From assembly GCF_054482525.1 (NCBI RefSeq), contig NZ_CM137006.1: a stretch of 64,000 nt of DNA, one strand, 5' to 3'. Below, piece by piece: positions 56,400 to 56,908 of this stretch (position 1 is its first letter; each line of letters begins with the position of its first letter). The translations under genes and the position numbers were made by a program. The notes under the pieces were generated by a model, which was given only the letters and a program-made list of their open reading frames with translations, did not search any database and had not been told where the DNA came from.

Positions 56400-56416
56400 A
56401 ATTGGTCTTACCAATT
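56400..56416 (-). promoter_or_regulatory. PdhR operator (perfect palindrome) in the pdhR promoter/leader
   Basis: aattggt-ctt-accaatt, 32-48 bp upstream of the pdhR ATG; matches the PdhR box ATTGGTnnnACCAAT. Confidence 0.65.
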
Positions 56417-56908
56417 TCATGTCTGTGACGCTAAAGTAACAAAGTATTCACCTTATGTCCATACAGGTTTTGATTGAAATCATGAAACTGTGCACATTTT
56501 AACAACTTGACATATATAACGTTTCAAAGTTGTAACTATGCACAAATGTAGACTTTACGTAGGAAAGGGATTTTTTAACGATTATTAAACTATAAAAATC
56601 CGAATTGAACCGATTCACTTACCAATTTTATGATTTTTAATTCAATTAAAACGAATTTAAATTCATTCTATATATTGAGAGGGGTTGAGGCTGAGCTTTA
56701 CAAACGGTTTCTTTTTAAGCAACTCATCTTCAACCATGCATAAAGCGGGTGCATTCGCTGCCGCATACCATTATTCTTGATCTGACGGAAGTCCTTTTGT
56801 AACAATTCAAACTTCTTTGATGTAAACAAATTAATACAACAAACGGAATTACAAACTTACACACGCATCACTGCGTAGATCAAAAAAACAATCACCGCAC
56901 GAGGTTTC

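Follow-up and report, generated by a model that had tools for sequence, protein, structure and literature searches.

The pdhR-aroP divergent regulatory region of Escherichia coli: site positions, conservation, and promoter geometry

TyrR boxes follow the consensus TGTAAAN6TTTACA, with a G-N14-C pattern, and aromatic amino acids serve as cofactors of the regulator. In the TyrR regulon characterized by Pittard, the tyrP, aroF, and mtr genes carry a strong box and an adjacent weak box on one helical face, as at aroP. Comparative genomics has assigned aroP to the TyrR regulon of Enterobacteriales. Summarizing work from the Pittard laboratory, Rihtar et al. (2020; PMC7142922) described P1 as the major aroP promoter, a promoter P2 located 21 bp downstream of P1, and a divergent promoter P3 that overlaps P1; TyrR together with aromatic amino acids recruits RNA polymerase to P3 and P1 is thereby repressed. 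The divergent neighbor of aroP, pdhR, encodes a repressor of the GntR family, and the other operators of PdhR (ndh, cyoA, fadE/lpcA, and further SELEX targets) share the core GGTnnnACC. According to published work, PAIusp is inserted in the spacer between pdhR and aroP; usp is then transcribed from P3, an activity counteracted by H-NS.

The central facts of the region are already known, because everything central to its interpretation has been published. Here, a stretch of 64 kb (hereafter, the window) was analyzed, and the region of interest is, with little room for doubt, the E. coli pdhR-aroP divergent regulatory region comprising two independent modules. These two control modules would be arranged back to back about 360 bp apart, with an AT-rich core between them. 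The present analysis establishes the positions of the sites, their uniqueness and conservation, and their geometry relative to published transcription starts; protein binding and the mechanism of recruitment to P3 are taken from the literature. An initial annotation of the same DNA, made from the sequence alone, is supported in its biology, and its errors concern coordinates and one weak box that was missed.

Locus identity and the pdhR module

The spacer is flanked by pdhR on the minus strand, with aceE behind it, and by aroP on the plus strand, followed by ampE, in accordance with the open reading frames and the RefSeq annotation. In BLAST searches, a 701-bp query covering the spacer showed identities of 100% with E. 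coli PCN033 and 99% with K-12, and matched 5423 of 5426 complete E. coli genomes, with annotated pdhR and aroP each time. The identification as a divergent pdhR/aroP regulatory region is borne out by the annotation and by the near-identical K-12 locus, and no observation speaks against it. In RefSeq, PdhR is a protein of 254 amino acids, the first base of its ATG lies at 56368 (minus strand), and AroP starts at 56909 (plus strand); therefore, the complete intergenic region occupies 56369-56908 and measures 540 bp. The initial annotation had given 507 bp from 56402 because it used the TTG of the longest open reading frame, at 56401, instead of the RefSeq ATG; this boundary would cut the palindrome that the same annotation had placed at 56400-56416. 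The AT-rich character that it had described is confirmed by a GC content of 34.4% in the spacer (34% when rounded) versus 51.6% in the whole window, with a minimum of 25-31% across 56450-56700 in 100-bp windows. Window positions (x) are converted to K-12 coordinates as 178460 - x, with no indels, and both ATGs and the PdhR box served to verify the conversion.

For the phylogenetic footprint, a PdhR search with one genome per species yielded 80 loci covering Escherichia, Salmonella, Citrobacter, Klebsiella, Enterobacter, Kosakonia, Serratia, and other genera. AroP is the divergent neighbor of pdhR in 79 of the 80 loci, and the spacer length is 524-653 bp, likewise in 79 of 80. Mean identities to the window base, given below for individual features, were calculated after aligning 78 of these species with the window.

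Transcription of pdhR-aceEF-lpd starts at an A residue at 56426 (minus strand; K-12 122034(+)), on which three datasets agree: Cappable-seq (relative score 1290, in the portion of that dataset available), the transcription start list of Kim et al. (2012; Table S1; 1225 reads, 58-nt 5′UTR), and 5′RACE, in which the first base was an A 58 nt ahead of the ATG. The operator is contained within this 58-nt leader. From the upstream string listed by Kim et al. (2012; Table S1) and the window sequence, the core promoter Ppdh is assigned to 56433-56461 (minus strand), with a probable -35 element TGGACA (56461-56456), a 17-bp spacer, and a probable TG-extended -10 element TACTTT (56438-56433); its mean identity is 0.95. 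Such an arrangement would represent a strong minus-strand promoter starting at 56426 and driving pdhR-aceEF-lpd. Further upstream, an FNR/CRP-like half-palindrome, TTGATTGAAATCAT, is located at 56470-56483, centered at about -50.5 of Ppdh. It has one mismatch to the FNR consensus TTGATN4ATCAA and, by eye, matches the CRP consensus TGTGAN6TCACA at 7 of 10 positions. The site is found at a fixed distance in 79/79 species, with one mismatch in 78 and two in the remaining one, and its mean identity is 0.93. Crp, Fnr, and PdhR are listed as regulators of the pdhR promoter, Fnr binding in the aroP-pdhR spacer has been published from ChIP data, and CRP binding has been described as covering the -35 region of the pdhR promoter. 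Judging from sequence and conservation, this near-invariant site at about -50 may, together with further conserved upstream blocks, add global inputs to the promoter.

The most distinctive element of the pdhR side is the perfect PdhR-type palindrome, which the initial annotation had placed exactly. The operator AATTGGTCTTACCAATT (56400-56416) is the sole match without mismatches to AATTGGTNNNACCAATT in the window, where the three other matches each have 3 mismatches, which is about the level of shuffled sequence. It also fits the 17-bp palindrome AATTGGTnnnACCAATT, with the core GGTnnnACC, with 0 mismatches at 56400-56416. All 14 specified bases are retained in every one of the 79 species compared, the distance to pdhR is within ±2 nt in 77 of them (two exceptions), and the mean identity of the box is 0.99; the box of this allele is identical to that of K-12. 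Because transcription starts at 56426, the operator lies at +11 to +27 of Ppdh, the position at which Quail and Guest (1995) are said to have placed it. In the part of the data of Anzai et al. (2020) that was available, the strongest genomic-SELEX peak, with an intensity of 9889, is assigned to AATTGGTaagACCAATT (14/14) of the aroP/pdhR spacer, and the peak position, K-12 122052, corresponds to window position 56408, the center of the box. The palindrome at 56400-56416 is the published PdhR box, and binding of PdhR to it has been published; autoregulation of pdhR, as cited in the initial annotation, agrees with this identity, with the top SELEX peak, and with the location of the box downstream of the mapped start. 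Mechanistically, a PdhR dimer would bind the perfect palindrome and block transcription, and pyruvate would release PdhR, resulting in autoregulation of pdhR-aceEF-lpd. A possible second half-site was also considered: CTTACCAATT recurs at 56618-27, and is regarded as a chance occurrence because of its only 10 of 14 matching positions, the missing GGT core, and the lack of conservation.

The aroP promoters and the TyrR boxes

The major aroP promoter P1 is located at 56772-56784 (plus strand). Its transcription start, a G at 56784, corresponds to K-12 121676(-), for which 76 reads and a 5′UTR of 125 nt were reported (Kim et al., 2012), and its -10 element is probably TATTCT (56772-77), which is invariant across species in the alignment. 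The divergent promoter P3 (56765-56795, minus strand) was located in an alignment of the window, K-12, and ST131 by means of the hexamers given in PMC7142922, i.e., a -10 element TGGTAT and, in UPEC, a -35 element AGTACT. In the window, the -10 element TGGTAT is at 56770-56765 and the -35 element is AGGACT at 56795-56790, with a 19-bp spacer. P3 would start at about 56758, and the start of P2 probably lies at about 56805. Among the plus-strand Cappable-seq rows of K-12 available, none is near 121702, the expected P3 start. A single base separates the -10 elements of P1 and P3, which are on opposite strands, so that a polymerase at P3 must cover the P1 core; the mean identity of this -10 pair is 0.86, and that of the adjacent segment 56778-56820 is 0.44. 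A generic promoter scan recovered none of the mapped promoters, since these are non-consensus, and returned a single match at 56605-56634 (1 versus 2.2 expected).

Two TyrR boxes follow downstream of P1. The strong box TGTAAACAAATTAATACA (56821-56838) lies at +38 to +55 of P1 and upstream of P3, with two mismatches to the consensus, and the weak box CGGAATTACAAACTTACA (56844-56861) lies at +61 to +78 of P1, with four mismatches and an offset of 23 bp from the strong box; this spacing places both on the same helical face. Both keep the G at position 2 and the C at position 17. Counted singly, TyrR boxes are not enriched in the window (21 matches at ≤3 mismatches versus 25.6 expected), and the strong box alone is not significant by consensus count, being one of three 2-mismatch matches in the window. 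It becomes significant because the second box at 56844-56861 forms a tandem that is absent from shuffled sequence: with the 23-bp offset and G2/C17 in both boxes, the tandem occurs once in the 64-kb window, and in 0/40 dinucleotide shuffles of the window and 0/2000 of the spacer. Altschul-Erickson shuffles were used for this null and for that of the ARG-box pair described below.

Conservation of the two boxes follows the same pattern. Across 79 species, the GTAAA of the strong box is retained in all 79 and the T-A-C-A of its second half in 77, 79, 79, and 75, respectively; in the weak box, the corresponding numbers are 79, 77, 77, and 72 for G-G-A-A and 72, 79, 79, and 77 for T-A-C-A. The half-sites are near-invariant and the central bases vary, which is the signature of a dimer operator; the mean identities over the whole boxes are 0.81 (strong) and 0.75 (weak). 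A deletion series placed the strong box proximal to P3 and the weak box proximal to aroP (Rihtar et al., 2020; PMC7142922), and the mismatch counts of two and four agree with the published order of strength. The assignment of strong and weak boxes is supported by secondary accounts and by the geometry. The TyrR candidate that the initial annotation had suggested around 56822-56839 is real and represents the strong box, one base removed from its actual position; the half-site AATACA, which had been regarded as weak, keeps a TACA core that is near-invariant in the 79 species, and the weak box at 56844-56861 had been overlooked.

At +38 to +78 of P1, the TyrR boxes are too distant for direct occlusion of this promoter. 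They are located upstream of P3 and downstream of P1 and P2, which is the geometry that the published mechanism requires, and recruitment to P3, as taken from secondary literature accounts, fits this geometry. TyrR carrying Phe, Tyr, or Trp would bind the strong box at 56821-38 and the weak box at 56844-61 and recruit RNA polymerase to P3, and the resulting complex would exclude polymerase from P1; relative to the minor promoter P2, the same boxes would be situated immediately downstream. TyrR control of aroP, which the initial annotation had cited from general knowledge, is consistent with the published P1/P3 mechanism and with the tandem boxes found here. The comparison with mapped transcription starts that it had proposed gives 56426 for pdhR and 56784 for aroP P1, with the PdhR operator and the TyrR boxes both downstream of their respective starts.

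aroP is a verified R1 target of the GcvB sRNA and is repressed by it; this post-transcriptional repression would act in addition on the 125-nt aroP leader. The leader and first codons (56784-56941, plus strand) contain a Shine-Dalgarno sequence, GAGG, at 56901-04, and the segment from this sequence to the ATG has a mean identity of 0.95. Candidate R1 duplexes on aroP are located at 56832-75 and 56912-41; in a naive RNAduplex calculation, for which the GcvB sequence had been confirmed, the two candidates gave -23 and -29 kcal/mol versus a null of -22 ± 3 and were not discriminated.

The AT-rich core, interrupted alleles, and alternative readings

The core between the two modules has a mean identity of 0.44 and carries two further types of conserved motif. 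The Cra consensus is RSTGAAWCSNTHHW. A putative Cra/FruR site, AGTGAATCGGTTCA (56606-56619, minus strand; about -180 to -193 of Ppdh), matches it with 0 mismatches and is the sole match to TGAATCGATTCA with ≤1 mismatch in the window; with ≤2 mismatches, the box is found at a fixed distance from pdhR in 76/79 species. Published Cra ChIP-exo data place binding downstream of the pdhR promoters rather than at 56606-56619, and, among the papers that could be searched, none cites the Cra-consensus sequence at this position. The second motif is a double ARG box (56629-56667; -155 to -117 of aroP P1), consisting of TATGATTTTTAATTCAAT (56629-46) and AACGAATTTAAATTCATT (56650-67) with a 3-bp gap, each with one mismatch to the 18-bp consensus WNTGAATWWWWATTCANW. 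A pair with ≤5 total mismatches was found in 0/300 shuffles, in which the best pair had at least 6, and in many genera good ARG boxes are again found at a distance of about 272-281 bp from the aroP ATG. ArgR ChIP-exo has revealed a double peak-pair at a location given as upstream of the aroP promoter. The Cra-consensus and ARG boxes overlap a promoter-like element, TTGAAC-N18-TATGAT. The scan for CRP and H-NS sites that the initial annotation had recommended gave consensus matches in the spacer no better than those in shuffles, and the same applied to ArcA; consensus scans of the spacer for IHF, Fis, and Lrp gave zero matches.

In about 20% of E. coli genomes (1060/5423), the spacer fails to align as one piece. 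ST131 and CFT073 are interrupted by PAIusp, an island of about 4.8 kb with 40% GC located within the AT-rich core and carrying usp (an Hcp-nuclease annotated as tssD) and imu immunity genes; CFT073 has an additional IS3. PAIusp in the core explains most of the interrupted E. coli spacers, and the window represents the island-free allele. In most interrupted genomes, this genotoxin island stands between the ArgR/Cra sites and aroP. The PAIusp alleles of B2 strains (such as ST131, CFT073, and UTI89) and of S. bongori keep the PdhR box, the FNR-like site, and the Cra-like box on the pdhR side, and P1/P3 and both TyrR boxes on the aroP side, whereas their aroP-side flank is just 89% identical. The BLAST alignment could be read as a replacement of 56559-56738 by the island, which is ruled out by a motif scan of PAIusp-positive ST131, where the pdhR side still carries the Cra-like box and one ARG-like box; therefore, the true junction lies further right, and the flank belongs to a diverged haplotype.

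The core may be a conserved distal input module in which the Cra-consensus box (56606-19) and the double ARG box (56629-67) make aroP, pdhR, or both responsive to carbon flux and arginine; this is a tentative suggestion with a rather low probability, and the roles of both boxes are deduced from sequence. If it is true, PAIusp would separate the module from aroP by ~4.8 kb in B2 strains and may have rewired aroP control in uropathogenic lineages. That the core (about 56560-56740) is instead a non-regulatory, H-NS-coated scar or landing pad of horizontal transfer, relevant only as the integration site of PAIusp, is also unlikely. The lowest conservation in the spacer (0.44-0.52), a GC content of 25-30%, the frequency of interruption here, and the binding of H-NS to equivalent usp-proximal DNA in S. 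bongori (PMC7142922) argue for such a scar, whereas the canonical double ARG box with its ArgR ChIP-exo evidence, the conserved Cra-consensus site, and the conserved spacer length in genera without the island argue for regulatory function. The scar reading and the regulatory reading are not mutually exclusive. It is very improbable that a small gene or sRNA, such as a product of P3 or of the weak Cappable-seq start at 56686 (minus strand; score 1.55 in the portion of the dataset available), has escaped annotation in the core. P3 does transcribe into the core and short open reading frames are present; however, Rfam gave no match inside the spacer even at E ≤ 1, a generic scan found no terminator-like site, the conservation minimum falls exactly in the core, and, in strains without the island, P3 reportedly yields no productive transcription.

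The reading of the flanking modules is also open to two objections, neither of which carries much weight. The longest pdhR open reading frame does begin at the TTG at 56401, and the transcription start at 56426 would still be upstream of it; were pdhR to initiate there, the spacer would shrink to 507 bp, and the palindrome, then overlapping the start codon, would exert its effect on translation or be coding sequence. This is extremely unlikely, considering that the 254-amino-acid RefSeq protein starts from the ATG at 56368, that an AGGA Shine-Dalgarno sequence is located 5 nt ahead of this ATG, that the published 58-nt leader lengths count to it, and that, in 80 species, the tblastn alignment with the ATG-started protein starts from its residue 1. 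Furthermore, 56369-56399 is conserved at just 0.75 and contains indels of ±2 nt before the box, unlike coding sequence. The other objection, that AT-rich DNA has produced a TyrR-like sequence by chance and that control of aroP resides elsewhere, could draw on the lack of enrichment of single boxes and on the ≤2-mismatch matches in 39/300 crude shuffles of the spacer. The tandem in 0/2000 shuffles, the near-invariant half-sites with variable spacers in 79 species, and published deletion and EMSA data that put a strong and a weak box between P3 and aroP stand against it, and this explanation has an extremely small probability and is already effectively refuted. The two-module interpretation, with PdhR acting on pdhR and TyrR on aroP, is retained.

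Relation to known systems

The region represents a textbook case both of autoregulation from an operator downstream of the start (PdhR) and of repression by recruitment of polymerase to an overlapping divergent promoter (TyrR at aroP P1/P3). Its main use is calibration: the region, the operator, and the strong TyrR box were recognized from sequence alone, and the start codon was misjudged owing to the longest open reading frame. Forward value is limited to two points, namely the conserved Cra-consensus box far upstream of both promoters and the location of PAIusp between the ArgR/Cra sites and aroP; curated databases may already record the Cra-consensus box and the ARG/Cra module.

The closest relative is the aroP-pdhR region of K-12 MG1655 (121552-122091), which has the same 540 bp, genes, PdhR box, and TyrR boxes, the same P1 and P3 -10 hexamers, and the same start-site positions in one-to-one coordinates. 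The window differs from it by seven substitutions in the spacer (56569/70, 56630, 56671, 56794, 56851, and 56892), which leave all specified bases of the PdhR, TyrR, ARG, and Cra motifs intact. The substitution at 56630 falls on an N position of the first ARG box and also changes TGTGAT to TATGAT, that at 56794 (C here, T in K-12) gives the P3 -35 element AGGACT instead of AAGACT, and that at 56851 falls between the half-sites of the weak TyrR box. Compared with the other PdhR operators, this site alone matches at 14 of 14 positions among the SELEX entries available, with a peak of 9889 versus 655 and 556. Finally, in contrast to tyrP, aroF, and mtr, the TyrR boxes of aroP are located far downstream of the major promoter, and repression is indirect, via the divergent overlapping promoter, rather than by occlusion.

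Spacer length and conserved blocks

The aroP-pdhR spacer measures 524–653 bp in 79 enterobacterial species, from Escherichia to Serratia (loci L005–L084, one genome per species), with a single exception of 1978 bp in locus L059; this length is kept although sequence conservation is low at the spacer centre. Two blocks are conserved among the 79 species: one comprising GCACATTTTAACAA, CGTTTCAAAGTTGTAAC, and GCACAAATG (56484–56561; mean identity 0.74) upstream of the pdhR promoter Ppdh, and the other comprising TAAAGCGGGTGCATTC (56741–56764; mean identity 0.79) immediately upstream of the -10 element of the aroP promoter P1; no binding site was recognised in either block. 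In the neighbouring pdhR-aceE spacer, the Rfam tp2 sRNA model is matched at 55446–55559 on the plus strand (103 bits, E 1e-19), i.e., opposite to both pdhR and aceE.

Cra-like sequences and a repeated PdhR half-site

Upstream of the pdhR start, at a distance of approximately 185 bp, the minus strand matches the Cra/FruR consensus without mismatch (AGTGAATCGGTTCA, 56606–56619). Sequence comparison indicates that this putative Cra box is kept at a fixed distance in 76 of the 79 species, and its sequence was not found mentioned in the literature searched. The Cra position described in one published ChIP-exo paper differs from it. A weaker Cra-like sequence, TGAATCGCCTCA, with two mismatches, is present within the pdhR coding region (56202–56213) and could be the site behind the Cra binding that has been published as lying "downstream of the promoters". 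A second copy of the right-hand PdhR half-site, CTTACCAATT, occurs at 56618–56627, approximately 210 bp from the operator. Because this copy has no left half (10/14 overall, lacking the GGT core) and shows no conservation, it is read as probably a chance occurrence.

Interruption of the spacer by PAIusp

The spacer is interrupted at approximately 56620–56739 in 1060 of 5423 complete E. coli genomes (~19.5%). In ST131 and CFT073 (loci examined: L001, L003, and L004), the interruption is the ~4.8-kb PAIusp genotoxin/immunity island, accompanied in CFT073 by IS3. The putative Cra box is still present in PAIusp-positive ST131, and in the PAIusp-positive arrangement 4.8 kb separate aroP from the ARG and Cra sites, which remain on the side of pdhR.

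Paired ARG boxes in the AT-rich core

In a simple scan, the sole sigma-70-like match was TTGAAC-N18-TATGAT (56605–56634, plus strand), the -35 of which overlaps the Cra-like box and the -10 of which overlaps ARG box 1; K-12 reads TGTGAT owing to an A/G difference at 56630. This single match is within chance expectation, and no known start site is found there. Within the AT-rich core, a weak Cappable-seq start (score 1.55) maps to 56686 on the minus strand (K-12 121774+) and is directed toward pdhR; its assignment to P3, the divergent aroP promoter, was ruled out, P3 being expected near 56758.

The same core contains a canonical double ARG box at 56629–56667 (-155 to -117 relative to aroP P1), with one mismatch per box and a 3-bp gap, and no comparable pair was obtained in any shuffle. 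Its location is consistent with the double peak-pair upstream of aroP in published ArgR ChIP-exo data.
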